DNA of 64,000 nucleotides, taken from NCBI GenBank assembly GCA_010093995.1, contig ML992506.1:1505508-1569507 (forward strand), read 5' to 3'. This document shows, piece by piece, positions 3,390 to 62,045 of the stretch. Both the position numbers and the translations under genes were made by a program. The stretch comes from Elsinoe ampelina (Eukaryota). How positions within the stretch are numbered: position 1 is the first letter of the stretch; every line of letters begins with the position of its first letter. The notes beneath the pieces are model-generated. The model saw only the letters and a list, made by a program, of their open reading frames with translations, had not been told where the DNA came from and ran no database searches.

Positions 3390-3821
3390 ACGAATGGAAT
3401 GGTCTTCGGTAGCGCTCACGCTCGGCACAAGTTTAATACACACGCGAGAAAGCCGACGGGAGCTATACAACATACCACCAGGCACAGTCCCTTGCTATCT
3501 GTGTATCTAGCTGGATCGTTACATAGCTGGTAGTACCCTCTATCATTCTACCAGGCCTGGAAGCACTTCTAGCTATATAAAAGGGATATGCCATTGTCAA
3601 GTTCTGGTAATTCTCGTGGTGTGTACCGCCTACTTGTCCCGAACGTGCACTTCAGGGATGATATTCTTGTGGTAGAGAAGGCGCAACGAAATGCAACGAC
3701 AATCACGACAAGCAAGGACTGCAAACAGGTCATTTCCAAATCGAATGTCATTACTTCATTCCCACCCTTCCCGTAAGTATCATACACACCCCCCTCTCTC
3801 CCCCTCTCCCCCTCTCCCCCT

Positions 3822-6800
3822 CTACCGCATACTCCCCAAACTGCCCCCACCAAACCTACTCGTCACCCCACTAAACCAACTCCCCCCGGACCCGCCACTC
3901 GACCAACTCGGCATACTAATCTTACTACTCCAACCACTACTCCCCGTCCCGCCCCCCAACCCAGTCTTCTCCTTATCCCCCCCACCAACCTTCCACTTCA
4001 GCCTCCCATCGACGATCATCTGCACAATATTAATCACACCAAACGCCCCGCTCCCGAGCGCCCGGAACAGCGCCAACCCCGCCACCGACCACAGGATGAT
4101 CTTCAGGTAGACGTTATTCGCGACGTCCCTGTTGCCGTACGCCTCGCTCACCGACATGGCCAGGATAGCGTTGGTGATCATCCACACGACGACCATGTAC
4201 GTCCTCACGGCGCGGTAGTAATCCTCCTGCATCTGGCTCTCCGACGGGCCGGGGGTAGCGACCTCAACGCGATCGCGGAGGTTGCGCAGCGCTTCGTCGT
4301 AGCCGCTGTCGATGTCGAGTTGCTCAGACGGCATGTCGAGCTCGACGGTGCCGGATTTGCCCGTCGCGGCGCCGAGGTCGGTGGAGACGACGTTGTCGCC
4401 TTTGGTACCCCAGGAGATGTCGTGGGCGTTGCAGAAGGCGTAGATTTGGAGGGTGCAGATGTACGAGGGGAGGAGGGCGAAGTATTGTGCGGAAGAGGTG
4501 AACATGTGCCAGGGGTCGAGGTAGAGGAAGGACATGAGGAAGTAGAGGCCGATGGTGGAGCTGGTGGAGACGATGAGGTTGGTGAAGATGTTGTTACCCA
4601 TTTGGAGGTTGGCGGGGGTTTGGAATTGTTTGACGACAATGTAGATGGAGCAGAAGGTGGTGTAGGCCATGATGATGGCGTAGGCGACGAAGGAGGAGAG
4701 GTACATCTTCTTTGCTCCTTGGGGTCGGTTACCCATGGAGAAGATGAATTGCATGGCGATGAGGAGGACGCATGTGTAGCGGAGGATGTAGAAGATGTAC
4801 TTGCAGAGGTTGGCCTTTCCGGTTGGGTCGATGGTCGGATCGGCGAGGGAGCCAGCGATGAAGTAGAAGGTAAGGTAGAAGTTGCCGAGGGAGAACCAGG
4901 TGAAGAGAAGAGAGATGAATTGGTAGACGAATTCGATGTGCAGGAGGACCTTGCGGGCGATGGTGTGGTCAGTGTACCAGATTTGCTTGAAGTGAAGGAG
5001 GGAGTAGACAGCGGCGAAGAACGCTCCATTCAGCCATCGACGACGCTGCGAGACAAATTCAGGTACAGAATCTAATGAAGGGTCAGTAATGTTCTCATGT
5101 CCTTTGAATTTATCAGACTGCTTACCTGGCACGTCAGTCTCTCCCGTTGCGCTCTTCACATATTTCAGGACCCATCTCTCATTCCTCTTCGCCACCAGTT
5201 CCCAGCACAGAATTCTGTCCTCGGCCAGATACATGTTCGCTGTGAAGACATCGGCATCTTGACCATGAAGCGTTTCACCCTTGAAGTACTGGCTGAGCGG
5301 GCCGTGGCCAGTCTCGTCGTTTTGAAGGGCATGGTACCGGTATGCTGACAAGGCACCAGGAAGCACGGTAATGTAACCAAATACCGACTCGAGTGGCTTG
5401 TCTAGAATGTTGCTCATCTTGTACTCAAAGTTCTGTGATGCCACCAGCGGATTGAGCAAACCGAGCCAGCCCTTGCCTTTACCAGCCTTGATCTCCCCAG
5501 CTGCTCCGGCAACGTTTGAGTCCGAGTCGAAAGCCTTCCAGAGATGGTACAGACTGGTGTTACCGGGCTTAGTACCAACATCCAGCAGGATACAGACGTT
5601 CGGATTGAGACTCTGACCAACTGCATTGAAAAACCATCGATGCGAGTTGAGCTTCTTCTGATTCTTCTCCTTCAGACAAAAGATCATCTGGCAAGGAACA
5701 ATACCCTTCTCAGCACCCTTGAATTTCAGGTCCGCATCCAGTGAGACCTGCGTTGTGTACTCGTATACGTGAGCCTGGACTTCCTTTTGATTGACCAGGT
5801 TCTTCGCGATGCCATTCTGGTAGCATCCCATGGCCGCCAAAGCGTCGAGAGTCCGCGGATGCACCTTCTTTCGTCCATCTGCGATAATGCAGACCACGAT
5901 CTTCTTCCAGCCGTCTTTGCCCCAGGTACGCGACTTTGTACGGCTGCAGAAATGGGCGATGTTGCGCATTACACCGTGCATTGTGCGAGTAAAGTCGATC
6001 TCGTTCTCGTTGTACATGGTCACACAGATCAGTAACTCGGTCTCGCGGGCCATACCAGGCATGTTCTGTCGCAGCTGGAAACCACGATCGACAAAATCGT
6101 CAGGATCGCATGTCACTGCTGTGTAGCGCATGTGTGTGAACTCGACATCATCGCGTCTCGGTAAGAAAGAGTACAAGATAGTGGGGATCTTGCACTCCAG
6201 TATCAGCTCTCCATTGACAAGTTTGACCTCCTTCTTCTTCATGAGGGCCTCGCGAGCACCTCTTCGTTCCTGCTTTCCGTCCGGCGCCTTTTCGTAATTG
6301 CCATAATCTTTCATGTCGTATTCATCCGTGAATGTGGAAGAAGAGATGAAGCTGTCGTTGCTGTTCATGGGTGGTCGCGAAGGGTCATCTCTGACGCCAA
6401 ACACATCATCTGGGTCGATTGGGATCGTCATGTTGTCCATGTTGTCATCCTCTTCTCGCGATACCATGGAAGCAGGGCGCCCCCCAGCGAAGAGTGGCGC
6501 AGGGGGTAGGGGCCGCTTTGGACTGCCTCCATACTGTGATGCTGGCGTGCCTGGTCTCGGACTGCCGTTGATGTCTGCCGGCTCGAAGGGTACTTTTGAT
6601 GGAGGAGGCCGGACATAGTCGTTCGATATCCGCGTTGGGGAGTGTGACGATCTTGATGAAGGGCGGAATGAGCTGTAGAAGGAGTCGCCAGTCTGTGGTG
6701 GTAGGATTTGTGGCGCATTGTCGAGGAAGCTCTGGCCTGATCTTGAGGATGGTCGCGATCCGTTGAGGCGCTGATGTGTGCGGTGCATAGGACTCGGCCT

Positions 6801-7195
6801 GTGGGTATCATAGAGTGAGTCAGGGTCTTCTGGGTATGCATGCGCGGGATACATTTTGCGCTTGTTTCTATTCTCATGCATGACCTGTGAAATGCGCGCA
6901 GAGGGTGGTGATTGAATGTGGTTCGCCATGTCGGCAGTGACATTCAACACCACACTCTCGGCAGATCAAGGAAGGAATGTGGAATGGTGTATGTGTATAA
7001 GGGTAGTAAAGGCCGTTGGAGTTTGATACAGGCAGAGATTGGGGCTACTAACGGTCTGAATGAGCTCTCCTCCGAAGTCAAAAGCCTCATGGTCGAACTG
7101 TTCCTGCCGGTAGGGGTGTCATCATCATTGGGGGCATAGCTTGATGGGCCAGAATAAGCCGGTGGCATTCCACCTGGCGTGCCCATGCCGGACAT
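3822..7195 (-). CDS. CHS2: Chitin synthase, class II (division 1), ~1021 aa; predicted exons 7195-7053, 6798-5126, 5071-3822
   Basis: Contains QRRRW, LAEDRIL, TMYNE and SWGTKG motifs and a C-terminal multi-TM region; [21 protein letters not shown] is typical of class II. A 54-nt in-frame intron lies at 5072-5125 (GTAAG...CTGAC...TAG). First intron 7052-6799 is inferred from GTTAGT...CTGAC...CAG with matching phase. The start codon is less certain. Confidence 0.93.
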
Positions 7196-8227
7196 TTGTG
7201 ATGGGTAACGACTGTAACGTTTATGCTGCGGAATGCTGTTGGGGGCAAGTGTGTCGTCCACCAGCACCTGGATGAATGATGGTGTAGATTCAGAGAGTGG
7301 TCATATCAACGGTCTCTCGGATGGATATCGAATGTGTGCGACCAGATAATGAGAGGATAATGGTATGCGGTCTTGTGTCTTGAGATTTGACGTCGAAACG
7401 TCGTTTGAGGGGAGCATGTTTTATTTTCGGCGCGTCGACCCAGCAACCGCGCATATCTCCGCGAAGATCCGCGCGTGTTTCAATAGATGCTGCAACTCCA
7501 CCTTTGTGCATGATATTATTAAATCCTTTGCAGGATGTTTAAACTGTCGTCAAGGCGATTCGAGACCCACCAAACACTGCATGCGTCGGAAGTGTTTGTG
7601 ATGGCCGCGAATGGGCCGGAGACCCGCCGGCAATAAGATCTTGGTGAGAAGCATGGCCTTGCTCGACTTGGACACTCTTGAGGGGACCAATCCGCTTCAT
7701 GTCGTCGTCAATTGCTCTCCGAACTTTACTGCTCTTCCGCATCCCGCCATGCTGTGACAAGGTATGGAAGAGGTGAAGTGAAATAAGACGGGCCCTTGAC
7801 GTCTTACCGTTGACGCGAGCAGGAACGGCAGCATGATCAGCATTGTTGCAGTCGAGGACTACCAGCCATTTCTGCCTCGCTTGTTCTCTCTGCCTTCAAT
7901 CATGACACGCAGCGTTGCTACTACAGTTATACCACAGTCATTGCTCCCGTCTGCGACGACCGTTGAAGTATGACGCAACAAGAGACCCTCGCCCTCAAAC
8001 CAACGTTCAAAGATCTGCAAGTACGCCATGTGACACTGTGAGACAGCTCAACTCGAACGCAGCTGTATAAGATAAGTACTGCTTCCTTCCTATCCTCAAC
8101 AAGACCCAGCCAATTTCCAAATCCACTCCGTCGAAACATCAGTCACAATTAATTCCACACCTCCACCACCAGGACAGCCAATCCAAGTCCTTATAGCATC
8201 GACAACCATATACCCTCCACAATCAAC

Positions 8228-8746
8228 ATGCAACTCCCCACCACCCTCCTCACCCTCTGCACCCTCCTCCTCACCCCTCCCTCTCTCGCCCTCAACATCC
8301 CCCGCGCCGGCGCCCCACCCTACACCCCCCTCCCACCCACCTGCACACTCACCTCCCCCCTCCCCCCACCCGCCACAAACTACAGCACCCCGCTCCTCGT
8401 CCCCTCGGCCTCCGTCCGCGCCTCCTCCCTGCTCTACCAAACCTACTTCGCCCTCCCAGACACCACATCCATGGCCGAGCGCTGGGAAGGGTGCGTCCAG
8501 CAATGCAATGGACTCGCGGGGTGCAAGGCGGCGTTCATGGCGGACGGGGTGAAGACGCCGAAGAAATGGTACGGGACGACGGGGGGGAAGAAGGGGAGGG
8601 GATGTCTTTTGTTTGACAGGGAGTTGGGGGCAGGGGATTTTGTGGAGAAGAAGGGGGTGGAGGGCGGGACGGCGGGGAATTTGGAGTGTGGTTCGTCTGA
8701 GGAGGAGGGGGACGGGGAGAGGGAGGAGGACGGAGAGGGCCGGTGA
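8228..8746 (+). CDS. Small secreted cysteine-containing protein (PAN/apple-like C-x3-C-x5-C spacing)
   Basis: Signal-peptide-like N-terminus MQLPTTLLTLCTLLLTPPSLA and the motif CVQQCNGLAGCKAAF...GCLLFD; 172 aa. Confidence 0.7.
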   Translation: MQLPTTLLTLCTLLLTPPSLALNIPRAGAPPYTPLPPTCTLTSPLPPPATNYSTPLLVPSASVRASSLLYQTYFALPDTTSMAERWEGCVQQCNGLAGCKAAFMADGVKTPKKWYGTTGGKKGRGCLLFDRELGAGDFVEKKGVEGGTAGNLECGSSEEEGDGEREEDGEGR

Positions 8747-8862
8747 TGGAGGTGGGAGGTCGGCGTAGGTTGTCCTGAGGCGAAGTGGCATGGCCAGGGA
8801 TGTACACAAGAAATTACACGAATGATACGGTACATGACATGAACAACACTTCCCACCCGCGT

Positions 8863-11145
8863 TCACCTAGTCGAACGTCTCCTCCTATTCGTATACCTCC
8901 GCCCCAGCCTCGCCTGCTCCGCTCTAGCCTGCTCCCTCCTAGCCTGCTCCAGCTGCTGCTCCTCAATCACCCTTTCCATCATAATCATCTGCTCCTCCAG
9001 GGTCTGCCTAATCTCCCGATCCGTCCTGTCCATCCGCTCCCTGCACTTCTCCCGACAAAACGTCACAAAGTTGTAGTGCCGCGACGTCCACGAGGGCAAC
9101 GGAAACGCCGGCAACCGCCCATAGCAGGCCCCGCAGTACTCCTTGAAAAACACCTCCCCGAGCGGGTGCCGCGCCGATACCTCCAGGCCTCTCCCGATGG
9201 CTTTGGTGGGGAACTGCTTCGGAATGACAGGGCTCTTGGGGCCGACCCGTCTATGGTGTCCGATGACTTCGGCTATGAACAGCAGCGTGTCAGGGAGGGT
9301 GTCGACTTCGGCGTTGATCTCGTCTACCAGACGAGCCGCCGTGGCGCCTACGTCCTTGCTCTCGTTGAGCTCGCGGTACTTGGCTTCGTGGAGACGCTCG
9401 GCCTTGCCGGGCGCGAGGCGTACGAGTCGTTTCTGCATGGCTTTTCTGGCAGCAGGGTCGTTCCATGAGCTCATCATGGCGTTCCAGCCTGTCTTCCAGC
9501 TGTCGACGTCGTTTGGCGGACCGTTAGGAAAGGTCGTGCTGGTGAGAAAGGACTCGAAGGGTCTGAGCTGCTGCACGATCTGCCGGGCGCCGTCGCCGAG
9601 CGTGGATGGCTCATCTATGAGACCGTAAACGATGTGAAGCCAGATGCGCAACTGGTCAATGAGGAGCACACTGCGTGAGAGGGATACGATGCGTGCCGAG
9701 ATATCGCCGATGATGAGGAATTGAGTGATTATGTCGGTGTTGTCGGGCGCTTGCGTCCAACCCAAGATGGCCATATGATGCTCCTCAATAGTCTCTTTCT
9801 CGGCTTTTGCACGAGGGAGTGCATATGTAGCTAGCATGTCGAGGAATTTCAGACGAATCTCGCGCAATCGATTGAGCTTGTAGAGGTTGACCTTCTTCGC
9901 CACATACAGACACATGGCAATACCAGTCTCCTTGATGAATTCGTTCTTGGATGCGAAGAATTTGGGCATAAACGCCTCGGTGAAGTGTGTAGGCGTAGGA
10001 GCTTGCTCCCACCTGGCAGGGTCAGTGTGTCATCTTTGTATGCAATCAGCAACTTACGTGTCAGCGATATCAGGCTTTTCCCGAATAGCAGCACGCTCAG
10101 CACCCAAGACATCACTAGAGTATGTTGCAAAGACATCATCGCCTTGCAATAAACACAGACAATTCACCTGTGCATCAAAGTCGAGCCATAGCCCCCAGAA
10201 TACTACCGTCCGTGTCAGCTATAGCACTCGCATGTTCCAAGAAGAGCTCATACCTCTCGAAGCCGTAGCCGCGCGTTCCATCCATCCTTTCCCTTGAAAG
10301 ATCCGAAGCATGGTCGTGATCTGCGTGGTAATCTCTGCGTGGCTTGCCTGAAGCTCTAGTTCTTGCAGAGTGACATCGGAAATGGCTTTCTCTCGGATAG
10401 GTTGTGGTCTGTGATCCTCCACGGTCAAGCTGTCCATCCGGGCAGCCAAAGCCGGAGTCCCGTCGTCCAGACGGTCAGCTTCCTCCACATTGGCGCGTTG
10501 GGGTTCTGTCGCTGGAGGACCCCTGCTCGGAGTAGGCCTCGGCACAGCTCTGACCGAAGGATGTACTCTTACAGGCAGAGCAAGCAGGCTGGTCAGGAGT
10601 CCATTGACGAGTAAACAAAAATTCACTCCGAATTCTGCGCGAGGAATGTGTAGGACGTCTCGAGCTAGGCTTCGTAATGTGCTCTGACAGTCGCTCCACT
10701 CTTGCTCCGACATGGCCTCAAAACCGTACCAGATAGCAGTAGCCGTGCCGGTTTGATCATTCTCATCCCACACCTCGGCATTACTCAGCTCAATCAACTT
10801 CGCCCAGACCTCCTGAAGCGATCGCTTGATCCGGTAATCGTCATCTTCGCCGGTGCTGATTCGATGCACGGCGTAGCCAAGCAGACTGGTGAAGACAATG
10901 TGGCTTCTGAAAGCCTCGGCCGATCTGTAAGAATGCAAGAGTGAAGTCCGTAGTTTGATAGACTCTCGCAATTGGTCGAGCAGTAGTTCTCCCTGCCTGC
11001 GTTTCACTGGTTTCACGCTGTCCAATAGTCCCTGAATGCCCTTTTGCTCGAAGCCATCACCGAAGGCTCTGGGAAATATGTTTTTCTCAATCGTCTTGAA
11101 TCTGGTGTAAGTTGTATCGTTTGATCTCGAGTACCTGCGAGACAT
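8863..11145 (-). CDS. Hypothetical ~728-aa protein; the ORF-track 308-aa and 368-aa ORFs join via exons 11145-10254, 10202-10058, 10012-8863
   Basis: Two introns with canonical signals (10253-10203 GTATG..CTGAC..TAG; 10057-10013 GTAAG..CTGAC..CAG) give a continuous frame through an open middle exon (VFWGLWLDFDAQV...). The C-terminus has CxxC...CxxxC and a coiled coil. A further 5' exon is possible. Confidence 0.75.
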
Positions 11146-21270: not shown

Positions 21271-21705
21271 GACACTTGAACGCATTCACGGCACAGGATT
21301 GGTCGTGGGAAGTGGTTTCTGCGGGAACAGGAACGAGGACGAAAGGGATGGCGTTGGATTGAGGGGCTATTTTGGTTGCACCCTGCATTGCATTGATGAT
21401 TCAACGGATGGTGGGGGGGGGCACGTCGACGGGAGCAGCAGGGGAAAGGGAAGCGTTGCTTTGTTTGATACCCCTGGTGGGGCTGGGCAGGGCATACATG
21501 GTCATTAAATGCTGTACTATAGACGAGAAGATACCCGAATGTTACGCTACTCTTGGTAGATTATATAAACTTCCTCTTCCTCCCAAAATGCTTGCTCCAT
21601 GTCCACGATTCCGGTGTCTGGTAGGAGCAACGGGCGTTCTGTGAACCGCTCTTGCGCAAGATTGTGATCCGTCTAACTGCACCAAATATGGCTCTCTCGG
21701 TCTGT

Positions 21706-23802: not shown

Positions 23803-24203
23803 TCGGACATGGTCAAAGCAGTGCTGTGCCACTTCGCATCCTTTCGGAGAGAGGTGGAGGAATTTTTGGAGGTTTCATTCGAAACGGCGTGACGGGTGCC
23901 CTTTTGATCTGGTTGTCTGTCTAGGTTTGATGCAACGGCTGCTGACCTTGATACGGATCGTAATCTTACCCGTTACATCGCCGTCACGTGACAGCCCTGG
24001 TAAAATGTCCCCGCGTTTAGGGCATCATACACCGCGACCAAACCTCAACCTGTCATTACCTGCCGTCTTCTACGCCACCTGCTCCTCAAATCAAGCCAAC
24101 CCAATTGTTTTGGGCGAGTCACACATGATATCAAGACCCTCACGCCAATACGACGGGCCGTAGCAAATGCTCATAAATATTTCTCATAGGTATCGCCACA
24201 ATG

Positions 24204-26144: not shown

Positions 26145-26273
26145 GTTTTCGACCGCTCGAATTGGATTGTCCTAGGTATGAGAGCGCAAACTACCGCATT
26201 GGTGTCTTTAGTGATTTGCTCGTGATGGTGTGAGATGAAAGAAAATGTGGTGACGTTGCGGGGAACGAAGAGA

Positions 26274-26289
26274 ACGCGTCTTGACGCGT
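26274..26289. promoter_or_regulatory. Tandem MCB (MluI cell-cycle box) elements
   Basis: ACGCGT at 26274-26279 and 26284-26289, 130-145 bp upstream of the ATG at 26144. Confidence 0.65.
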
Positions 26290-50155: not shown

Positions 50156-51316
50156 ATGGGCTATCCACCACCCATCCCGCCACGTCCTTCAGGATGGGCA
50201 CCAACACCCCCTAATCTCCCTCCTAGAACTCAGGCATCTTCGAATGAGAATCACGTGAACCAGGATCCACAAGCTCAGTACTACCAGAGTGGATTAGGAC
50301 AAGGATCAGGACCACAACCGTACGGTGATCAGTATAATGTGCATCAGAATCAAGCGCAGTATAGCCAGCATTTTCCCCATCAGCAATCACAGTATCCTCA
50401 ATACTACACTGGACCACAGCAAGGACAAGCTCATCAGCCGCCTGTTCAGCAGCACTATCAACAGCCGCCACCACAGCAGCACTACCAACAGCCATCATTT
50501 CCATATCAGTCCCAGAACAATCAACCTCCAACTCACCACGCTCCTCCATCTCAGGGTCAAATCTGGCAACCTTCGGCGGGCACAACTTGGCAGTACGTCC
50601 TCGGCCACCGTATTAAACTGGACCATACCATCGAGCAGACCTCAGTCTGGATCATTGACCTCTTCGACACCACAGCAGACGACGTCGCCGAGTTACATCG
50701 ACGCGGGCGTAAAGTGATCGCCTACTTTTCAGCGGGTTCCTATGAGAACTGGCGGCCAGACGCCTCACGGTTCCCTACCTCCGACATGGGCAAGAAACTC
50801 GACGACTGGGAAGGGGAAAAATGGATTCGGACATCTTCACCCACCATCCGAGAGATCATGACCGCACGCATGGACTTGGCTGTGCAGAAGGGTTTCGACG
50901 GCATTGATCCCGACAACGTCGACGGGTACGACAACAAAAATGGCCTTGGTCTCACGAAGAACGATGCTGTGGACTACGTGCTCTGGCTCGCTCGAGAAGC
51001 TCACGGTCGAGGTCTGGCAGTGGGATTGAAGAACGCCAACGACATCATCCCGAGAGTGATCAGAGAGATGCAGTGGTGCGTGCAGGAGCAGTGCGTGCAA
51101 TACGGTGATGAAGAAGAGTATCTCCCATTCATCAGACAAGGAAAGCCAGTGTTCCATGTCGAGTATCCCAAGGGGGAAGACACGGACAGTAAGAGGTGTA
51201 ACAATGAGAAGGAGGTGACCGGTAAGCAACTGCAGAAGTGTGTTAGGGCGAGAGAGATGGGCTTCTCGACCATCATCAAAAATATCAATCTTGATCAGTG
51301 GATACAGAGGTGTTGA
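50156..51316 (+). CDS. GH114 endo-alpha-1,4-polygalactosaminidase-like protein with an N-terminal P/Q/Y-rich low-complexity region
   Basis: WQPSAGTTWQY, IDLFD, IAYFSAGSYENWRPD, KGFDGIDPDNVD, GLKNA and VQEQC; no hydrophobic leader. Confidence 0.88.
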   Translation: MGYPPPIPPRPSGWAPTPPNLPPRTQASSNENHVNQDPQAQYYQSGLGQGSGPQPYGDQYNVHQNQAQYSQHFPHQQSQYPQYYTGPQQGQAHQPPVQQHYQQPPPQQHYQQPSFPYQSQNNQPPTHHAPPSQGQIWQPSAGTTWQYVLGHRIKLDHTIEQTSVWIIDLFDTTADDVAELHRRGRKVIAYFSAGSYENWRPDASRFPTSDMGKKLDDWEGEKWIRTSSPTIREIMTARMDLAVQKGFDGIDPDNVDGYDNKNGLGLTKNDAVDYVLWLAREAHGRGLAVGLKNANDIIPRVIREMQWCVQEQCVQYGDEEEYLPFIRQGKPVFHVEYPKGEDTDSKRCNNEKEVTGKQLQKCVRAREMGFSTIIKNINLDQWIQRC

Positions 51317-53307: not shown

Positions 53308-55561
53308 CTAAGACAGGCCCAACTCCCTGTAGAATGCCTCCGTACTCGGCTCTCTCCCAAGGAACTGCTTCAAAGTCTCCATTTCATCCTGACTACCTCC
53401 CTTCTCAAGCACCATGTGCCTGTACTTCCTGCCCTTTTCCTTGTTCATCGGGTCCTTGTGAAACATTGTGTAGAACATATCCGCCGAGTAGACCTGCGAG
53501 CTGAGGTAGCCGTAGTAGCCTGCATCGTATCCTACATGGTGTCAGCAGTCATTCACAAGCAATGACAATCGACAATACTTACCGCCGATAAGATGTCCAA
53601 ATGTGGCCTCGCCATTACCCCACTCATAGCCCTCACCTAGCACTTCTGGACCGTCGATCAAGCTGATGTCCTTTCTCAGCTTGTTGTACAGCTCGCCGAC
53701 TTTGAGATCCTCGATCTGCTTGTGGCTCTCGCCCTCGTGGACAGTCATGTCGAAGATACCAAAGTGTAGTTGGCGAAGGTTGAACAGGGCGTCGTTCACG
53801 TGACGAGTACGAATGATGCTGTCGACAAGATTGTCGGGAAGATGCTCGCTCGGCTGATCCTTCGTCGACTTGGATGATTCTAACCAAGCGGACTTGTAGC
53901 TATCGGAGAGGTAAGAGTAGTGCTTAGACAGCGAGCGGAGTTGTGACGGTGTCCAGCACCAGTTCTCCAGCATTTGCGAAGGAGCTTCGACAAAGTCACG
54001 GACAGTGTTTGTGCCGTGGAAGAGGGAGTATTGGGTCTTGGAGACAAGATCGTGGATGCCGTGGCCAAGCTCGTGGAACAGAGTGACCACTTCGTCGTGC
54101 TTGAGAAGAGATGGCTTCTTCGGAGTCGGCTTGGAGAAGTTGCAGACAAGTGCCGTTGCTGGGTATCGGCGGGTACCATTTGAGTCAATGTAGCCCGGTT
54201 GCAGGTTGAAGTTGGCAGCATGGCCATACTTGCCATCACGTGGATGCAGATCGAGGTAGAGGTATCCGACGAACCCATCTCCCTCCGAAGCATCGTCCCA
54301 CACCGAGAAGACCTGGACATCAGGATGCCAGATGATGTCGTCGCCCTTGCCTGTTGGCGAGACCTTCGCCCTGTCCTCACCGGTGATCTGCACGAAAACC
54401 AGGCCGAAGATCTCCTCGAAGATTTGGAGCATGCCGCGAATGGAAGTCTCGAGCGGGAACCATTCCGAGATGAGCTCCTGATCAAGCTGATAATCACGCT
54501 CGAGCATCAATGTGTTGTAATACCTGTGCAAGAATTAGCTGAAAGACCACTTTACAACCCGATGCGACGTACCTGTTATCCCACAAGTAGTAGTGACCAT
54601 CACTCTTCTCATTTCTTGACTTGAGGTCTTCCTCCTTTAGATCCTGTAGCTTCTTTATCTCGTCGCGACCACCAGGAGCAAGACGCTTCCTCAGATCACC
54701 CAAGAAGTCATCCACAGTCTTTGGCGTTTTTGCCATCTTATCCTCAATCACAAATGCGGCGTGGTTGGGGTATCCAAGCAAGCGAGCCGCTTCATCACGG
54801 AGAACGATAGCCTCTCTGAACAGCGGCACATTCTGGTTGCACTTGTTCTCGTTCTCAATGAAGATCTTCCTCCGCGTTTCCGGGTTCTTTGCATGCTTGA
54901 GAGCAGGGAACAGGTCCGGGTACTTGAACGTAAGGCGGACCTTGCCGTCGTTCTCTCCCTCTCCCTTCTGAAGGTTGCCCACTAGATCCTCTGGTAGCCC
55001 GTCCAGCTCTGCCGGTGTGAACCACAGCCCTCCTTGCTCTTCATTGAGATTCTTCTGGAAGGTAATGCTTAGCTCCGATAGCCGCTTCTTGATCGCCTTG
55101 AAGCGATCACGCTTAGGTCCGGCAGGTATATTGAGGCCCATCCGCACGTAGCCCTTGTGTGTCTTCTCCAGCAAGCGCTGAGATTCTGGGTCAAGCTTCT
55201 CTTTCTTGTCCAAGATACCCTGAAGCAATCCGAAGACATCCTCGCGCATGCTGCTCTCAATGCCAAAATCGTCAAGCAGCTTCTCGGCCTCAGTCGACGC
55301 ATCTCGTAGCTTAGCATCCGTTGAGACAGCTTGGTAGAAGCCGATGATATGCGACTCTGTAGCCATTGTGTTGTCATCCAGCGCCATGGGCAAGAGGACG
55401 TTCTTGAACGTAGCATCGGAAGCCTTGTACTGCGCGACAGCATCGTCTTGGACTTTCTTGCTCTGCGCAATCAAGCGCTTGGTATCAGCCACTAGCGAGT
55501 CGGGGGTAGCTGTGAAGACTGGCGGAGCCTGGGGAGGCTTCTGGTACTTGGAGGCAGCCAT
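53308..55561 (-). CDS. PRD1: M3A metallo-oligopeptidase (saccharolysin/thimet oligopeptidase, MepB-like), multi-exon
   Basis: FHELGHGIH (HExxH), RDFVEAPSQMLENW and FGHL..GYDAGYYGYL. First AUG is at 55561; a CUG-initiated extension from 55729 is possible. Confidence 0.93.
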
Positions 55562-56059
55562 GGTAGAGGTGAAGAGAGGGCGGGAGTACGAGGATCTGAA
55601 GGGGTTGATCTGAGCGCTGAATGCTCCCAGCCGCGCAGAGAAACGATTCAGAGCCACGGTGACAAGTGAGAGAAAGATGAAGATGATCAGCAGGGCGCGG
55701 AGCGAGCGGCGTGGGTCGAGGACAGCCAGGTTGGCGGTGAGCAGTCAGCGGCGGGGTTCTGAGGGGAAGAGGTCAATGCGGAAGACAGACAAAGTGGAAG
55801 TCTTGTCAAGATGTCGTTTATCTTCCAAGTAATAGATAGGAAGCGTGCTATATACACTGCGGTCTGCCAGCCCTAAAGCTGACGGGTCCAGACCATCATT
55901 GCGGGGCCTTGGCTGCTAATGCTCTTCTACACCAAAGGATGCCTTCTTGAACGTCGCCACATCGTACCATCGCTATTAGGTCACATGGCGATATCAGCTC
56001 ATGATGCTTGTGACAAGGACTTGTACATTCAGTCTACATATATCCATCAAAGATTGCAT

Positions 56060-57233
56060 TTAAAGCTTGCTCCGCGAAACAACCTTTGCGTTGTTGGAAG
56101 AGATGACTTGAACGGCCTGGTCGACCATCTCATCGATAATGACCTTTGCAGACTTCTTTTCGTTGGTGACAGCAGCGGCCTTGCCCATGAGGAACGGTCG
56201 GGCATTGTCCATTGTGTCGTCGTCAATGTCGTCACCCATTTTTTCGAGATCATGCTCCACTGGGATGATACCCTTGCCAGTCAAGTCCTTGATCTCTGCT
56301 TGTCTGTTCTCCTCCCAGTTCTCAATGTAAGGGTTCTTGCGAACACGCAGAGGCCGTCCAGTGAAGATGATTGTGCGAATGTTGTCGTCGAAGCCGGATG
56401 TACGGACCGCTTCCTGGTGAGCCTTGGGCGCGCCAGCCTCCTCAGACAGGACGAAGCGGGTTCCGACCCACACAGCAGAGGCACCAAGCGAGAGGGCAGC
56501 GGCGAGCGACTGACCGTTGAAGATACCTCCTGCAGCGATGACCTGCACAGGTTCGCCAGTCAGGGGTGACTTGTGTCCCTTAGCCAGTTCGACGACCGTG
56601 GGAATCAGGATTGTGGTTGGAACGTCGCCGGTGTGTCCACCTCCTTCTCCACCCTGCGCGCAGATGAGGTCCACGCCGAGATCGAGGCATTTCTTGACGT
56701 GCTTCGGGTGGCCGATCATGTTCATGTAGAGAATGCCAGCCTTGTGAAGCTTCTCGACCACATGCTTAGGGGGCACACCGACAGCGGAAACAAAGAGACG
56801 AGCCTTGGACTCGATGATGATATCGACTAGCTCGTCGAGCTTGCCCTTGGTGTAGTCGTAGCTGTGAGGTATGAGGGGCTGTTTCAGGGGCTGGATCTTG
56901 CGGACTTACTTGGTCTTGCGGGCTCCGGCACCAACCTGGGGAAGAAGAAGGTCAACACCGAATGGTGCATCCTTGTTCTTGAGGTATCCCTTCAGCTCGG
57001 CGATCTGCTCGCGGAGCATGTCTGGTGTGTATCCGACTCCTCCGATCACTCCGATACCTCCAGCATCTGATACAGCAGTATTTTTTGTCAGCAACATTCT
57101 TATATCCACGATAGGACAAGACTTATGCCGCGAGCCGAGGACCTGCCGCAACGTTCATTCCAGCCAGCATGATAGGGTGGTTGATCTTGAGGAGGTCCGT
57201 GGTGACGGTGCGGATCTGCTGAGGGGAGGCCAT
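56060..57233 (-). CDS. Nitronate monooxygenase / 2-nitropropane dioxygenase family FMN enzyme with PTS1, multi-exon
   Basis: LLAGMNVAAGP, FGVDLLLPQ, AQGGEGGGHTG, IAAGGI and VWVGTRF; ends in -SKL. Confidence 0.9.
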
Positions 57234-57720
57234 GGTTGAGCGGGTTTGGGAGGATCGAAACGGCTAAATCGTGTTTGTTGAACGTATAAAGGCTTCAGGA
57301 GACCAGGAAAAAACACAGTGGCTCGTCAATTCAAAGTTGAATGATTGAGAAAGAGAGATGAGTGATAGTTGGGTGAAGGTGTAGCAAGACGAAGTGCCTC
57401 GGCATAAACGGAGAGGGTCTGTCTCCATGGGGAAAAACGTGGCTCGTGCGCATTTTGCGGGGGAGCTCTCTTCCGAGGTTGTGAATTTTGCCTCACCTCG
57501 CCAATCACCGTCACATGCAAGATCCGGACGCCGACAATTGACTTGCCGTCGAACCATTGGTATGTGATCCTGCACCGAAACATGTGTATCCGTAGGAGCT
57601 ATCATTCGAAGTTCATCGTCATAGAGACAATAAAGATGTTCATACACGCATCGAGTGAGTCTGATCCATTTGCAGATAACGTCCGAGGCATTAGCGATAT
57701 CATGCTTGCTGCATTGTAAG

Positions 57721-59724
57721 ATGAGACTGCAGATATCTGCACGACCACTTTTCACATGTCCGGCTTCGACGACACAGCTCTGTAGCAGCTGGAGATCGGT
57801 CTCGAGATTGCACTACCAGCAAAAGCATGTGAGATTGCGTGCAGCCACTCATGTTCGACGGTCCATTTATTCGAGCCACCGCATCAGAACCACCAAGCTA
57901 GTTACTGCCAGACCATATTCGACTGCCCAAGAGCAACCATGGACGAAAGCGTATGTTGCGCTGGGCTCGAATCAAGGAGAACGTCTGGCGCTTATAGAAG
58001 CGGCATGCTGGACTCTGTTCAACCATGAGTCGATCAAATTACTTCGTACAAGTCTGCTCTACGAGACTGCACCAATGTACGTGGCTGACCAGGATCCATT
58101 CTTGAACGCAGCTTGCGAAGTAAGGCCCGAGTAAGGTCAGTCTGTCGAGCTCTCAGGCTGACTGTGACGATGTGCAGATCGAGACATGTCTCCCACCGAT
58201 GCAACTTCTTGATGAACTACAAGCAATCGAGCAGGCAATGGGTCGTGTAAAGACTATCGATAAGGGTCCAAGAAATATCGACCTCGATATCCTACTGTAT
58301 GGAGATGAAAAGGTGGCCACAGAGCGGCTGATCGTGCCTCATAAGCTAATGCACGAGCGCGAATTTGTGCTGAGGCCATTGGCTGAGTACGCTCTTATTT
58401 GAAGACTTTCTATTTGGTCACTTACGACGTTTTCAGCTTAATTCCGGAGAAAGTGATCACTGCATTAGATGCATCGAGACCGATCAAAGATTACTTAGCA
58501 GATCTATCTCCGTCAGATCCTCCGCTGTCGCCTATAGTCCCGTTCGGTCCAGGACAATTTCTCCGACCTCTCGATAGATCGAGGAAGACCATACTCATGT
58601 CCATCTTGAACGTCACGCCAGACTCCTTCTCCGATGGCGGCAGGTTTGTCACCAGTCTCACCGAAAAGAATGAAGGCAAATTCTGTATGACCAAAAAGTC
58701 GACGAAGCATGAACTTTCGATCCCGAACAAAGGTGATATTGTCACCGCTCGGCAGATTGTACTACAGAACGATCAACATCGACGACTCTTTCGCGCACTC
58801 GCTACTGCTGTGGCAGATGGCGGCGACATCCTAGATATCGGCGGCCAGTCATCCCGACCTGGTGCGGCGTCCATCACAGCAGAGCAGGAGATCGATCGTA
58901 TACGGCCTGCTATGGCCATCCGAGCCATGTTCTTTCCATCCATACCCACCAGTGTCGACACATATCGCGCCCAAGTAGCCAAAGCCACGCCTGAACTAGG
59001 CTACCAGTTCCCGGTAACCACTGAGAACAAGCAACCACACATCGAACCAGGAGCGCACATCGTCAACGACATCAGTGCCGGTCTACTTGATGGAAACATG
59101 CTGTCCACCGTCGCCAAACAACGACAGACCATTGTCCTGATGCACATGCGCGGCACCCCAGAGACGATGAACAAGCTCACCGACTACCCAGAGGGCGTCG
59201 TGAAGGGCGTAGCTGAAGAGCTTAAACAGCGCGTCGCCGAAGCCGAAGCAGCAGGCATTCCGAGATGGCGAATCGTCCTCGACCCAGGGATTGGATTTGC
59301 GAAGACTGCTGAACAGAATTGGGAGCTGCTGAGAAGTCTGAATATCCTGCGCGAGTGGGATGGTCTGAGGGGCCTCCCGTGGCTGGTGGGGACGTCGAGG
59401 AAGAGGTTCATGGGCGATGCGCTCGCGAAGGATGATGAGGTTGTACTTGGCAGGGCGGAGCAGATGGGGAGTGAGTCGGGTCTGACGGGAGCGCTGGAGG
59501 CGGAGTGGGCTGGGGTCGCGAATGAGGCGCGGGAGAAGATTGGTGCTGGGGAGAGGGAAGGAATGCATGATCCGAAGATTAGGCGGGTAGATCTGAGGGA
59601 CATCGGGACTGCAGCGACGGTCGCGGCGGCGGTGCAGGGAGGTGCGGATGTGGTGAGGGTACATGAGACGAGGATAGCGAGGGATGTGATTGCTGTTGCG
59701 GATGCGATTTGGAGAAGACCATGA
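57721..59724 (+). CDS. FOL1: Folate synthesis enzyme HPPK-DHPS with a mitochondrial-type presequence; exons 57721-58119, 58178-58386, 58437-59724
   Basis: HPPK motifs: YVALGSN, GPRNIDLDIL, PHKLMHEREFVL. DHPS motifs: ILNVTPDSFSDGG, DIGGQSSRPG, NDIS, LMHMRG, DPGIGF, SRKRF, VRVHE. Confidence 0.92.
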
Positions 59725-59902
59725 GAAAAAGGGCCACACGTTCAACACGGGTACCGGACAGCTTCTAGGATAGATATCCAGCTTTATCGACTTTTTAGAT
59801 ATGTCAATCCTATACACGCACGATCCATCATTCTGTAGCCTCGCCATACATCACGCCAATTCCACGATCTCCCCATTAGGCTCAATCCTCACTTCTCACC
59901 AT

Positions 59903-61010
59903 CTACTGCCCCTTCTTCCCCTCCCTCTCCGCCTTCCTCAACGCCCTCTTCCTAATCGCCTCATGAAACCCCCTATTCTGACTCACCACCACCCCTCTCA
60001 TCGTCCCCACCTGCAACAAAAACCAATGCATGACCCCATGGCTCCAATAAGGCGTGCTGGTCGCATACACTCCCTGAGCACCGCCACTCCTCCCGATCTT
60101 GCCCAGCGCAGCCCTGACAAACTCCTTCGGCGACGGGATCGTCATGCTCGCGCGTCGAATCTTGGACATCGCGCCCGTGACGAGGTAGGATTGGACGATT
60201 TGCACCTTCACTCCCGAGGGCGCGAGTTCCGATGCCAGGGCAGAGGACCAGTGTTGCAGGAAAGCTTTGGAGCCCGAGTAGGTGGCGAGGAGAGGCGTGG
60301 GGAGGATCCCGCCGAAGGAGGCCATGGTGAGGATCAAACCGCGCTTGCGTTGAGCCATGCCTGGTGCGACGAGCTGGGTGACGCGGAGGGTGGCGAGGCA
60401 GTTGATTTTGATGATGGATTCGAGTTCGGGGACGGGGGTGAGGGTGAAAGGGACGGGGATGGAGTGGGACTGGCCTACGTTGTTGATGAGGATGGCGATG
60501 TCGAGGGGGGCGATGAGGGTGGAGAGGGATTGGTAGGTGGATTCGGAGGGGGAGGAGAAGTCGATGGGGAAGACTTTGGTTTGGATCGAGGGGTGTTTGG
60601 TGGTGATTTCTGTGGCGACGGAGGTGAGTTTGGATTCGGTTCGGGAGAGCAGGAGGATGTTGAAGCCTTTGGCGGCGAGCTGGAGGGCATATTCTTTGCC
60701 GATGCCTTCGGAAGCGCCGGTTACGATGGCCCAGGAGCCTTTGCGGCCATACTTGGAGAGCTGGGTGGGTGGTCAGTGTGGTGTAGTCACTTGGTTCGGT
60801 GACCATGGCACGGGTGTGGAGGAGTCTCGGGAGTGTCCTGAAATGATAAAGAGGAGGAGAACTTACGGATTGTCCAGGCAAGATGAACAGACTGGCCATC
60901 ATCCGCCAGAAGCTGGCAATTTTCAAGCTGACATATAGAACGCCAATGAAGGTGAACAGGAAGGTCAGCGGCTTGCTAATAGCATCCTCGACCTGATCTA
61001 TGGCAGCCAT
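59903..61010 (-). CDS. IFA38: Very-long-chain 3-ketoacyl-CoA reductase (SDR), one intron at ~60761-60866
   Basis: N-terminal [25 protein letters not shown] (YxxxK) and a C-terminal KKxx ER-retrieval signal (KKGQ). Confidence 0.9.
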
Positions 61011-61325
61011 TTCGACGAATTATATCAATTGATACTCGAGCACACGTGAGATGAGGTTGAAGCCGGGGTTTCCTGTTCCTGAATGATCGACGTGGTGGAT
61101 CAAGATTTTGATGTGATGATGTGCGGCTCACCTCGGCTCAGCAAAAACGAGGTCGAAGCTCTGGGGAAGCTTGGATGCAATTGTTGGTGACGGCGAGCTC
61201 GGTCTCACCACTTCTTTGCTTACATCTCTCGCCCTTCATTCTCTCTCAACTAACACGATCGCCCGTCCCTGCCGATCCCTAACCCTTCTTTCACTCCCCT
61301 CATTGCTCAAACAACGCAACTCACC

Positions 61326-61838
61326 ATGTCCGCCCTCCTCACCTCCTTCCTCCCACAAGTAGAAGGCCTCCTCCCCAAATGGATCTTCCTCGTACCCACC
61401 CCCAACCCCTCCCTCAATCTCCTCCCTCTAACCTCCCTACAGGTCGGCACCATCTCCCTCCTCAACTCCATCCAAGCCTACGCCTCCCTCTCCGCCACGC
61501 GCCGCGTCTACGCCGGCCCCGCCCCGCCCTCCTCCTCCTCGGTACCACCAAACACACTCAAAGACTCGGGCTCCCCCGTCACACCCCTTAGCGCGCGCAC
61601 CTTCGGGACGTGGACCTTCATCACTGGTATTGTGAGGATATACGCGGCGCACAGGCTGAACGAGCCGGCGTGGTTTGAGATTGCGGCGTGGACTTTTGCG
61701 GTGGCTTGGGGGCATTTTGTGAGTGAGTGGTTGGTGTTTAGGAGTGTGAGGTTGAATGCCGGGTCGGCGGGGCCGTTTGGGGTGGCGACGGGGAGTTTGG
61801 TGTGGATGTTTTTGCAGAGGGGGTTTTATTTGAAGTGA
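61326..61838 (+). CDS. ERG28: Erg28 ergosterol-biosynthesis scaffold protein; in-frame intron 61392-61442
   Basis: GLLPKW, NSIQAY, VTPLSARTFGTWT and HFVSEWLVF. Confidence 0.92.
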   Translation: MSALLTSFLPQVEGLLPKWIFLVPTPNPSLNLLPLTSLQVGTISLLNSIQAYASLSATRRVYAGPAPPSSSSVPPNTLKDSGSPVTPLSARTFGTWTFITGIVRIYAAHRLNEPAWFEIAAWTFAVAWGHFVSEWLVFRSVRLNAGSAGPFGVATGSLVWMFLQRGFYLK

Positions 61839-62045
61839 GGGCAGAGGGTGGGAAAGGGAATAAGGTGGGCTGGAGATTGGTTGATGAAAGAGGAGGAGGA
61901 CACAGTGACGAAACATGGATGTGTTGAGCATATGTGCGGGCGATTGATACCCTTTTCTGATTTCAGAGCCGGCGACTATGCAAGCGGCGCATATCTACAG
62001 TCAAGTACGCTTCTATATACACCTGATTTTAGAGCGATCCTGTCG

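Follow-up and report, generated by a model that had tools for sequence, protein, structure and literature searches.

The question raised by this locus is why, at ten places within the 64,000 nucleotides of Elsinoe ampelina DNA that were analysed (the window), the + strand turns from C-rich to G-rich over a short distance. GC skew on the + strand passes from negative to positive in all ten spans, from between -0.13 and -0.67 in the left arm to between +0.15 and +0.60 in the right arm, and it exceeds |0.36| in both arms of eight of them; the G+C content of the arms is 0.54-0.64 compared with about 0.53 for the window. When two adjoining 300-bp windows are compared (switch statistic D, threshold |D|>0.6), ten C-to-G switches are found at or near the points first picked out by eye, the largest with D = 1.34 at 8473, and 18 switches when both polarities are counted. 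Mononucleotide shuffles gave no such switches, shuffles of 30-bp blocks a mean of 0.32 and a maximum of 3, and shuffles of 100-bp blocks a mean of 7.25 and a maximum of 14, with 1.06 as the highest |D| across all shuffles. The C-rich-then-G-rich spans that an earlier note had described from the sequence are thus real, but its statement that the polarity is always C then G is not, since eight switches in the G-to-C direction also exceed this threshold. They mark where the units begin and end, and two of them (8843, D -1.04; 59734, D -1.12) match the best C-to-G switches for sharpness.

Segmentation with an HMM gave 27 skew blocks, which cover 16% of the window (the units and further blocks are described in Table 1). 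The flips are sharp and frequently take place inside about 40 nt. Units 3 (8850-9760) and 8 (58900-59720) each consist of one 3'-end block with a weak partner arm. The distribution of third-position skew is continuous, and no separate class of elements can be seen in it.

The skew is strongest where the protein is least affected, peaking at third and fourfold-degenerate codon positions. Fourfold sites are composed of C.64, A.14, G.12 and T.10 in the C arms (n=953) and of G.66, T.14, C.15 and A.05 in the G arms (n=492), which are roughly reverse complements with GC skews of -0.69 and +0.62, and of C.32, G.22, A.22 and T.24 elsewhere in the window (n=4684). The description of the arms as C/A-rich and then G/T-rich is right for silent sites, where the C-ending share of NNY codons is 87% in C arms vs 38% in G arms, the G-ending share of NNR codons 39% vs 91%, and the third-position T-minus-A skew goes from -0.24 to +0.61; over all sites it fails, as AT skew does not flip between the arms. 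The purine-ending two-fold codons of the C arms are shifted to A, with a G fraction of 0.39 vs 0.69 elsewhere. Introns and UTR-like flanks are skewed as well, from -0.34 to -0.74 within C arms and from +0.27 to +0.70 within G arms (except for the 56-nt DHPS 3' flank, 0.00), while 12 introns outside the arms range from -0.36 to +0.36; 15 introns are listed as joints in RNA contigs. Part of the skew is also found at codon positions 1 and 2, and the C arms are enriched in Pro/Ser/Thr/Leu and the G arms in Gly/Glu/Arg/Val/Trp. The earlier note was thus correct that the skew overrides synonymous choice and runs through introns and UTRs, and the data support that it is something other than ordinary codon bias. 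Given the skew of introns and flanks and the shift to A in the C-arm purine codons, the explanation belongs among the strand-asymmetric processes that act on the DNA itself or on the primary transcript.

The same note had considered the units to be independent of gene position and not an effect of transcription start sites or terminators, and here the result is the opposite. All ten C-to-G switches fall within a single coding span, whereas seven of the eight G-to-C switches fall outside coding spans and have a start or stop codon at a distance of 10-213 nt (Fisher p=2.5e-4 against C-to-G). For the unit edges, with start and stop codons standing for transcript ends, this is the tracking of TSS or polyA sites that the note itself had named as refuting its reading. 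With gene ends taken as start and stop codons on a hand-made gene map, in which several start codons are approximate, 19 of the 27 HMM blocks are a C-rich 5' end or a G-rich 3' end on the coding strand. Circular shifts gave 7.3 +/- 2.3 such assignments (P 0.006) and blocks with swapped sign 6, and no block of the 27 had the opposite assignment alone. Each of the nine unpaired blocks lies at a gene end and has the sign that the orientation of the gene predicts. The sample is 27 genes in one window, and in 24 of these the 3' zone exceeds the 5' zone in G skew, a polarity also kept by 14 of the 17 genes that lie outside the ten units (Wilcoxon p 0.008). Where the start codon is firm (five genes), the 5' blocks start 116-205 nt upstream of the ATG. 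By the rule used, eight of the 27 blocks are away from gene ends; three of these, at 4413-5019 (chitin synthase), 37962-38625 (phenol hydroxylase) and 40377-40734 (thiolase-like), are clearly internal and adjoin an end block. The unit genes 8228-8746, 8863-10029 and 19648-21270 are predicted ORFs with no Pfam match, and skewed DNA yields long ORFs by chance.

Table 1. Positions and gene context of the skew units and further blocks in the window.
Feature	Positions	Blocks	Gene context
Unit 1	3736..5019	C 3736-4092, G 4413-5019 (+ strand); switch ~4242	Last (inferred) exon of minus-strand chitin synthase gene; on coding strand an internal C block, then a 3'-end G block reaching 86 nt beyond stop 3822
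Unpaired block	6588..7045	G (+ strand)	C-rich 5' end of chitin synthase gene, ATG ~6929
Unit 2	8079..8802	C 8079-8470, G 8473-8802	Spans entire small predicted plus-strand ORF 8228-8746 with signal-peptide-like start
Unit 3 core	8805..9066	C (+ strand); partner arm to 9760 weak, +0.15	G-rich 3' end of minus-strand ORF 8863-10029
Block	19089..19470	C	Upstream of or at start of long C-rich plus-strand ORF; start codon uncertain
Unit 4	19928..21467	C 19928-21079, G 21080-21467	C block over body of Ser/Thr/Pro/Arg-rich plus-strand ORF; G block over last 190 nt of ORF and 197 nt past stop 21270
Unpaired block	24026..24347	C (+ strand)	G-rich 3' end of minus-strand ORF 24204-26171
Unpaired block	31426..31603	G (+ strand)	C-rich 5' end of minus-strand AMP-binding enzyme gene
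Unit 5	33627..34238	C 33627-33911, G 33915-34238	Spans entire 76-codon plus-strand gene 33754-34037 (intron 33771-33823 seen in RNA contigs); G block also over 3' end of convergent minus-strand transcript, with the wrong sign for that gene
Unit 6	37962..39099	C 37962-38625, G 38850-39099 (+ strand)	Minus-strand phenol hydroxylase gene, ATG 38894; G block is its C-rich promoter, 5'UTR and first codons; C block is internal G-rich block, +270 to +930 nt
Unit 7	40377..41391	Internal G block 40377-40734; HMM block 40736-41009	Minus-strand thiolase-like gene; coding strand C-rich from ATG 41391 to 40736; internal G block ends at intron 3; intron 1 C-rich, intron 2 G-rich
Block	41993..42201	G/T-rich (+ strand), ordinary G+C	C/A-rich downstream of minus-strand P-type ATPase stop; breaks the 3'-G rule
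Unpaired block	45878..46061	G (+ strand)	C-rich 5' end of P-type ATPase gene
Block	50375..50552	C	N-terminal, pre-domain part of plus-strand GH114 gene
Unpaired block	55495..55816	G (+ strand)	C-rich 5' end of minus-strand M3 peptidase gene
Unpaired block	57171..57432	G (+ strand)	C-rich 5' end of minus-strand nitronate monooxygenase gene (5' exon outside gene model)
Unit 8 core	59287..59733	G; partner C arm 58900-59189 weak	G-rich 3' end of plus-strand HPPK/DHPS gene, stop 59724
Unit 9	59734..60859	C 59734-60125, G 60238-60859	Spans entire minus-strand short-chain dehydrogenase gene: 3' end G-rich, 5' part C-rich
Unit 10	61204..61946	C 61204-61624, G 61626-61946	Spans entire plus-strand ERG28 gene, ATG 61327, stop 61838; C-rich intron 61393-61443 inferred from splice motifs

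The switch units are neither autonomous elements nor replication origins. We consider it very probable that they are a fungal skew anchored to genes, and only a little less so that two gene-end effects meeting inside one transcription unit explain the whole pattern: a 5'-end block of about 0.2-0.65 kb would make the coding strand C-rich and G-poor, and a 3'-end block of about 0.25-0.45 kb would make it G-rich and C-poor. As this order reads alike on both strands, an intragenic switch is C-to-G and an intergenic junction G-to-C on the + strand, and in short genes (0.6-1.1 kb) the end blocks touch, which gives the sharp flips in the middle of the gene. The most likely mechanism would be a substitution bias, blind to coding, that is tied to the points where RNA polymerase II transcription units begin and end; it would enrich G on the template strand close to the start and on the coding strand towards the end. 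The blocks are near mirror images at silent sites, and the simplest reading of this is one process acting in opposite orientation from each end of the gene. Given a gene-anchored skew, the scales tip slightly towards a transcription-linked asymmetry of mutation or repair as its cause. The usual transcription-linked model is cytosine deamination, and the raised GC3 of the blocks (0.76-0.81 vs 0.54; rho 0.29, p 1e-6) argues against this in its simple form. The three internal blocks fall outside what a simple two-ended model predicts, and switches this sharp are not obviously expected from two decaying end effects.

Skew at the ends of transcription units is known from other systems. Mammalian CpG-island promoters and terminators have GC skew and R-loops, and their coding strand is G-rich at both the 5' and the 3' end; the blocks described here are likewise tied to the ends of transcription units and share the G-rich coding strand at the 3' end, but at the 5' end the coding strand of the fungus is C-rich. 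The pattern is one that fungal genes are known to have, an intragenic polarity of GC skew, which in the window is strong and can be read in individual genes. The excerpted text of McLean & Tirosh (2011, BMC Genomics 12:638, PMC3315797) reports opposite skews, with 5' C-bias and 3' G-bias on the coding strand, for the majority of some 64 fungal species, filamentous ascomycetes among them, as mainly a G/C effect that reaches fourfold sites, amino-acid use, promoters, 5'UTR and 3'UTR. Elsinoe ampelina agrees with these excerpts in having 5'-C and 3'-G at fourfold sites, in amino-acid use and in flanks. They give species-wide averages, a similar effect at degenerate and non-degenerate positions and a flat AT skew, whereas we see discrete blocks in single genes with skews of 0.4-0.7 and switches within tens of bases, the strongest effect at fourfold sites and a flip of the third-position T-minus-A skew; raised GC3 and internal blocks beside end blocks are not described in them. 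Fujimori (2005, BMC Genomics 6:26, PMC555766), also in excerpt, reports that C exceeds G near the start sites of plants and of some fungi, and the coding strand is similarly C-rich and G-poor around gene starts here; that account concerns the start site alone and leaves the mirror-image 3' block and the mid-gene flips undescribed.

An explanation by protein composition plus the usual codon preferences of translation would agree with the skew at codon positions 1 and 2, to which the internal G region of the phenol hydroxylase gene adds G skew at both positions in orthologues, and with the P-type ATPase gene, which has a uniform C-ending codon preference of the classical kind. It is nevertheless hardly credible, as fourfold sites are the most skewed, introns and flanks are skewed too, C arms favour A-ending over G-ending purine codons, and codons flip within single genes (in ERG28 from TTC to TTT, CTC to TTG and TCC to AGT); the fourfold-site, purine-codon, intron and flank data refute it for the blocks. 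The earlier note's own proposal, that each switch is a fixed site of an outward bidirectional process, such as an efficient origin or a repair hotspot, is very improbable. C-to-G is the polarity expected at a bidirectional origin, and the skew jumps at bacterial oriC and in the skew N-domains of mammalian genomes also go from C-rich to G-rich along the + strand at neutral sites. The sharp flips, the directly abutting C and G blocks in five of the ten units and the similar size of the arms on both sides, averaging about 0.3-0.4 kb, would also fit. The arms of origin jumps are, however, kilobases to megabases long and not limited to single genes, while those of the window are 0.3-0.7 kb, every switch is confined to one coding span, the edges of the units follow start and stop codons, and the nine blocks without a partner arm all follow the gene-end rule. 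Fungal origins are moreover far sparser than ten sites per 58 kb. The skew is weaker at the centre (mean -0.37/+0.30 in the 100 nt nearest the switch) than at 100-300 nt (about 0.5), a motif search at the switch centres found none in common, and the switch of the thiolase-like gene moves between relatives, from about codon 200 to about codon 360.

Selection on the behaviour of the nucleic acid, and not mutation bias, could act through a G-poor 5' and C-poor 3' transcript that tunes R-loops, pausing and termination, or polymerase speed, or through G4, i-motif or fold-back structures as the earlier note had suggested. McLean & Tirosh discuss an adaptive hypothesis in the excerpted text (PMC3315797), from which the idea of CTP limitation, through polymerase speed, is taken. 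As many as 19 of the 21 four-run G4 motifs of the window are inside the blocks, strong 3' G blocks are commoner at convergent 3' ends (8/18) than at tandem ones (1/10; p 0.098), as might be expected if termination there has to be firm, and the position of the internal G bump of phenol hydroxylase is kept in orthologues although protein identity is only 75%. However, G-runs are rarer than composition predicts (z -7.1 for runs of 3, -6.4 for 4 and -4.8 for 5 or more), so that the G4 motifs follow from G-richness alone, and the fold-back search found only imperfect inverted matches of low complexity. The continuous third-position skew also points away from a distinct class of elements, and the amino-acid changes, with Gly/Trp/Arg-rich tails on conserved enzymes, are a cost. 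We therefore regard selection as unlikely; as the cause of a skew that is gene-anchored, selection on the transcript seems improbable, and recombination-linked biased repair somewhat less so. In the latter case, meiotic breaks in nucleosome-free DNA at gene starts and ends would be followed by strand-specific heteroduplex repair or GC-biased gene conversion on the 3' tails, which would enrich G there and yield a G-to-C polarity at the gene boundary with the C-to-G meeting point within the gene. By reasoning alone, the polarity deduced from 5'-to-3' resection agrees with the data; GC3-rich blocks fit biased gene conversion, unlike deamination; A is the most depleted base on the G-rich strand (0.05-0.10); and conversion and resection tracts resemble the blocks in length (0.2-0.7 kb). 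A sexual cycle, now or in the past, is suggested by AT-rich, RIP-like DNA at 1-1500. Resection is two-sided, whereas at many boundaries just one of the two sides carries a block (for example at the phenol hydroxylase promoter and the 3' ends of GalT, 21706 and G1). Chitin synthase and the small ORF are divergent, and their 5' blocks lie 1 kb from each other with no common centre; the internal blocks would require one-sided intragenic hotspots. Taken as a whole, a recombinational cause is unlikely too, if less so than selection.

The gene-anchored skew can be followed into relatives represented by metagenome contigs. Orthologues about 75% and 54% identical have third positions that run from C to G, and in those 22 kb all four blocks lie at or beside gene ends, with the predicted sign in the three that can be assigned to a gene.

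The stretches that turn from C-rich to G-rich are real and were well described in the earlier note. On the plus strand GC skew goes from negative to positive at all ten spans (left arms -0.13 to -0.67, right arms +0.15 to +0.60), and the G+C of the arms is elevated to 0.54-0.64. By a 300-bp two-window GC-skew switch statistic, D, ten C-to-G switches exceed 0.6 at the same places and eight G-to-C switches fall below -0.6, so that the rule of C always coming before G holds for the ten spans but not at that threshold for the window. Against these 18 switches, mononucleotide shuffles gave none, shuffles of 30-bp blocks a mean of 0.32 and of 100-bp blocks a mean of 7.25, and the largest |D| was 1.34 compared with 1.06 in the shuffles. 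A three-state HMM marked 27 skewed blocks, which are 178-1152 bp long and together take up 16.2% of the window; shuffles of 50-bp blocks produced 16-32 short segments, and since the segment count thus did not discriminate, D was used as the test against chance. The switches are sharp, and in five units the blocks abut directly. The mean profile at the ten switches is level at about 0.5 between 100 and 400 nt on each side and reaches just -0.37/+0.30 in the first 100 nt, and there is consequently no decay outward from the centre.

The window is intron-bearing fungal DNA with a G+C of 53%. Pfam matches on long ORFs gave a dense gene map across it (chitin synthase, SET/PHD protein, cyclin, leukotriene-A4 hydrolase, AMP-binding enzyme, phenol hydroxylase, thiolase-like protein, P-type ATPase, GH114, M3 peptidase, HPPK/DHPS, short-chain dehydrogenase, ERG28, GalT and others), and gene bodies in our map make up 70% of the window. 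Same-species contigs from three public runs are spliced, with 15 introns having GT..AG or CT..AC ends among the joints listed for 21450-41449; they carry no strand, start, end or level and were used for splice joints only, within the parts that they cover. One of the runs, X7, is identical to the window, and X12, from a relative with about 3% difference in exons, covers almost nothing of the arms. Intron 1 of the thiolase-like gene was placed from a loose contig end and the reading frame and intron 2 from the frame only, and the introns of ERG28 and chitin synthase were predicted from splice motifs.

Set against this map, and contrary to the earlier note, the switches are not independent of gene position. 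Every one of the ten C-to-G switch points, taken as the minimum of the G-minus-C walk, falls within one coding span, whereas seven of the eight G-to-C switches are in DNA outside such spans, with a start or stop codon 10-213 nt away (Fisher p 2.5e-4). Among the 27 HMM blocks there are eleven at 5' gene ends where the coding strand is rich in C and eight at 3' ends where it is rich in G, 19 in all, and no block could be assigned solely the opposite way. By comparison, circularly shifted block sets give 7.3 +/- 2.3 such blocks (P 0.006) and swapped signs give six. All nine blocks without a partner carry the sign predicted by gene orientation (p 0.002). Six of them are at 5' gene ends, among these chitin synthase, AMP-binding enzyme, P-type ATPase, M3 peptidase and nitronate monooxygenase, and three are at the 3' ends of DHPS and of two ORFs listed in the table; the GH114 block was classed as "other" and is not in this set. 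In the five genes whose start codon is firm, the outer block edge precedes the ATG by 116-205 nt, and at 3' ends it follows the stop codon by 9-201 nt, distances that fit UTR lengths. The tendency is also seen gene by gene, as skew is negative in the 5' zone (ATG +/-200) of 22 of 27 genes (mean -0.16), positive in the 3' zone of 22 of 27 (mean +0.15), and higher 3' than 5' in 24 of 27, including 14 of the 17 genes without a unit (Wilcoxon p 0.008). Third-position skew is continuously distributed across 281 windows of 40 codons, which makes the units the strong end of a general pattern and not a class of their own.

A gene with a C-rich 5' end and a G-rich 3' end on its coding strand reads C then G on the plus strand in either orientation, and all junctions between genes, be they tandem, convergent or divergent, read G then C, which explains why the polarity looked universal. 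In short genes (the small ORF in the table, a 76-codon gene, the dehydrogenase and ERG28) the 5' and 3' blocks meet, and this results in sharp flips in the middle of the gene. Three units, in chitin synthase, phenol hydroxylase and the thiolase-like gene, pair an internal block with an end block and are not accounted for by gene ends. The internal block of chitin synthase starts about 50 nt after a predicted intron, and the unit would thus be the last exon. The C/A-rich block downstream of the ATPase stop is likewise left unexplained by gene ends.

Coordinates of the features in the window and of the thiolase-like gene in two related metagenome loci (L003, L004)
Feature	Position	Strand	Observation
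AT-rich segment	1-1500		G+C 0.27-0.31; TpA/ApT 1.8-2.0 (0.5 in rest of window); (CpA+TpG)/(ApC+GpT) 0.19-0.47 (1.2-1.6 in rest of window)
Chitin synthase, end of predicted ORF	3822-4100	minus	Low-complexity Gly/Ser/Trp tail of ~60 residues, from the G-rich 3' block
Chitin synthase, internal block	4413-5019		Coding-strand C
Chitin synthase, predicted intron	5071-5124
Small ORF	8228-8746		5' and 3' blocks touch
Convergent pair, stops	8746-8863		Stops ~100-180 nt apart
ORF	ending 8863		Unpaired 3' block
Long ORF	ending 21270		C-rich body; G-rich only in last 190 nt and 3' flank
ORF	ending 24204		Unpaired 3' block
Convergent pair, stops	34037-34141		Stops ~100-180 nt apart
Ends of RNA contigs	34044-34060	minus (gene)	At most 25 nt from stop of the plus-strand gene
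Phenol hydroxylase, internal block	+270 to +930 nt		G
Thiolase-like gene	39563-41391		Tandem with phenol hydroxylase; four introns
Thiolase-like gene, internal block			G; ends at intron 3
Block downstream of ATPase stop	41993-42201		Coding strand C/A-rich
P-type ATPase	42406-46100	minus	Third-position skew -0.1 to -0.8 throughout (40-codon windows); no 3' G block
Segment with short ORFs only	46300-50000		~3.7 kb; ordinary composition
Convergent pair, stops	59724-59903		Stops ~100-180 nt apart
ERG28, codon flip	61604		TTC, CTC, TCC, CGC before; TTT, TTG, AGT, AGG after
Thiolase-like gene, L003	275-1813		Intronless; divergent from phenol hydroxylase
Thiolase-like gene, L004	683-2206		Intronless; divergent from phenol hydroxylase

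Neutral sites carry the skew most strongly, and here the earlier note was right that it overrides synonymous choice and runs through introns and UTR-like flanks. Silent sites were counted in coding segments of known frame only, sorted into C arms and G arms (coding strand) and the DNA elsewhere. Fourfold sites are C.64, A.14, G.12 and T.10 in C arms (n=953; skew -0.69), G.66, T.14, C.15 and A.05 in G arms (n=492; skew +0.62), and C.32, G.22, A.22 and T.24 elsewhere (n=4684); the arms were picked by skew, which makes the sign circular, but not the ranking of codon positions, the shifts in NNY and NNR codons or the flip of T and A. The share of NNY codons ending in C is 87% in C arms, 38% in G arms and 63% elsewhere, and that of NNR codons ending in G is 39%, 91% and 69%. 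Together with the fourfold sites this means that C arms shun G even where codons ending in G are the usual ones, and that G arms shun C and A. The two compositions are nearly reverse complements of each other, with higher GC3 in both. T-minus-A skew at third positions changes from -0.24 in C arms to +0.61 in G arms, although AT skew over all sites does not flip between them. Introns inside arms are skewed alike (thiolase-like intron 1 -0.64 and intron 2 +0.58, the intron of the 76-codon gene -0.53), and so are the flanks (5' -0.34 to -0.74; 3' +0.39 to +0.70, with one exception at 0.00), compared with -0.36 to +0.36 in the 12 introns measured outside arms. The proteins follow: C arms are richer than G arms in Pro (8.9 vs 3.2%), Ser (10.9 vs 6.3%) and Thr (9.0 vs 4.4%), and poorer in Gly (5.8 vs 12.0%), Glu (3.3 vs 9.2%), Arg (6.0 vs 10.4%) and Trp (1.2 vs 3.0%), a shift that fits the tail of chitin synthase and the Gly/Glu/Arg-rich C-termini of several proteins.

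Papers of 2005 and 2011 described a pattern of this kind in fungal genes, and the units are very probably a strong, block-like instance of it. An excess of C over G near start sites is described for plants and some fungi by Fujimori et al. 2005 (PMC555766). According to McLean & Tirosh 2011 (PMC3315797), most of some 64 fungal species, with Aspergillus, Neurospora, Fusarium and dermatophytes among them, have a coding strand that is C-biased 5' and G-biased 3'; the bias is found at fourfold sites, with matching amino-acid biases, and reaches into promoters and 3'UTRs while A and T change little, and its cause is given as unknown, with mutational as well as adaptive hypotheses discussed. The 5' C bias, the 3' G bias into the 3' flanks, the fourfold sites and the amino-acid shift are all alike here. 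In their description AT skew is about uniform along genes, and in our window it does not flip between arms over all sites but does so at third positions. The literature that was searched, with subscription journals outside it, gave no description of block-like sharp switches in single genes of filamentous fungi.

One scan of metagenome contigs gave five related loci, three of them perhaps close kin, and 22 kb of this DNA was examined. A full-length phenol hydroxylase orthologue (about 75% identity) is present in three of the five, and two of these three have a thiolase-like orthologue (about 54% identity) that is inverted relative to the window. In the phenol hydroxylase orthologues third-position skew starts at -0.4 to -0.6 (first 40 codons), rises to +0.2 to +0.4 around codons 80-160 and is about zero or below after that; the gene in the window has a like but stronger shape, reaching +0.5 to +0.8 between codons 80 and 280. 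C bias in the thiolase-like orthologues lasts until about codon 360 and then gives way to G bias, and the switch in the window is at about codon 200. All four HMM blocks in the 22 kb are at or beside gene ends. In this small sample, polarity is kept among the relatives and strength and switch position vary, and the organism of the window looks stronger in skew than they do. The tandem order of the thiolase-like gene and phenol hydroxylase is shared by the window and locus L001, and the contrast with L003 and L004 is, as read from the sequences, a local inversion together with an intron difference between relatives.

What causes the pattern is less clear. Its polarity is predicted by three models, a substitution bias at transcription-unit ends, strand-specific break repair at nucleosome-free gene ends and a process that works outward from a centre, and the data exclude only the last of these. 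At a replication origin the jump on the plus strand is also from C to G, but it is placed by replication rather than by gene structure and both arms are always present; all ten switches here are within genes, and nine arms have no partner where a centre-out process would leave none unpaired. With the gene anchoring and the missing decay from the centre, the origin or hotspot reading is not supported. Mammalian-type promoter R-loops, in which the coding strand is G-rich just downstream of the start site, do not match either, because the coding strand here is C-rich at 5' ends. The proposal of G4, i-motif or fold-back elements is contradicted by G-runs below the expectation from composition (397, 149 and 56 runs of at least 3, 4 and 5, against 486, 215 and 96; z -7.1, -6.4 and -4.8), even though 19 of 21 four-run G4 motifs are inside blocks, and by inverted matches that are imperfect (12-32 nt, 75-93% complementary, mostly C-runs against G-runs). 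Nor is there a motif at the switch centres, as the best 6-mer occurs in five of the ten compared with a control mean of 5.9 inside arms. With a CpG observed/expected ratio of 1.0 in blocks, deamination of 5-methylcytosine was rejected, and plain cytosine deamination does not fit well with their raised GC3 (rho 0.29, p 1e-6). Introns in G blocks have been kept and are G-rich, and cDNA-mediated conversion was for that reason rejected as a source of the 3' blocks. Convergent as opposed to tandem 3' ends as the cause of strong G blocks was not established (8/18 vs 1/10, p 0.098).

We favour a transcription-linked asymmetry, since the edges of the blocks follow transcript-like boundaries. Strand-specific repair beside recombination breaks in nucleosome-free gene ends is kept alive by the raised GC3, but two-sided breaks do not predict the many boundaries with a block on one side only, and we regard it as improbable. 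It is also conceivable, if rather unlikely, that both fungal gene-end skews are one discrete, G-enriching and strand-specific process, running inward from each transcription-unit end over about two to four nucleosomes and occasionally from conserved internal sites. Such a process might arise from initiation, sense at the promoter and antisense in the nucleosome-free region at the 3' end, or from heteroduplex repair of one strand beside breaks at gene ends. The near mirror-image composition of silent sites, the raised GC3, the sharp block edges and the internal G bump of phenol hydroxylase, which holds its position in the orthologues, are compatible with a single inward process. The consulted sections of McLean & Tirosh describe the pattern in averaged form, as three regimes with possibly different causes, and do not contain this reading.

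Gene-independent units resembling origins or hotspots would have been striking, and with that claim gone what is left is a known fungal pattern, seen clearly at one locus and of modest importance. In this fungus the effect flips synonymous choice in the middle of genes, colours introns, and gives proteins Pro/Ser/Thr-rich heads and Gly/Trp/Arg-rich tails. For gene prediction, skewed DNA yields long false ORFs, and at the same time skew marks the ends and orientation of genes; analyses of codon usage and selection are likewise affected. A species with such sharp blocks would be a good system for tracing the cause.

Some other features of the window can be mentioned. The segment with only short ORFs at 46300-50000 had no Pfam match at E<=0.001. 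With a uniform preference for codons ending in C, the P-type ATPase looks like a highly used gene under classical codon bias rather than a case of the block pattern. Three convergent pairs have closely spaced stops, and in one of them the 3' ends of the pair probably overlap, since RNA contigs from the gene on the minus strand terminate so near the opposite stop. In its dinucleotides the AT-rich segment at the left end looks as a degraded repeat would after repeat-induced point mutation.
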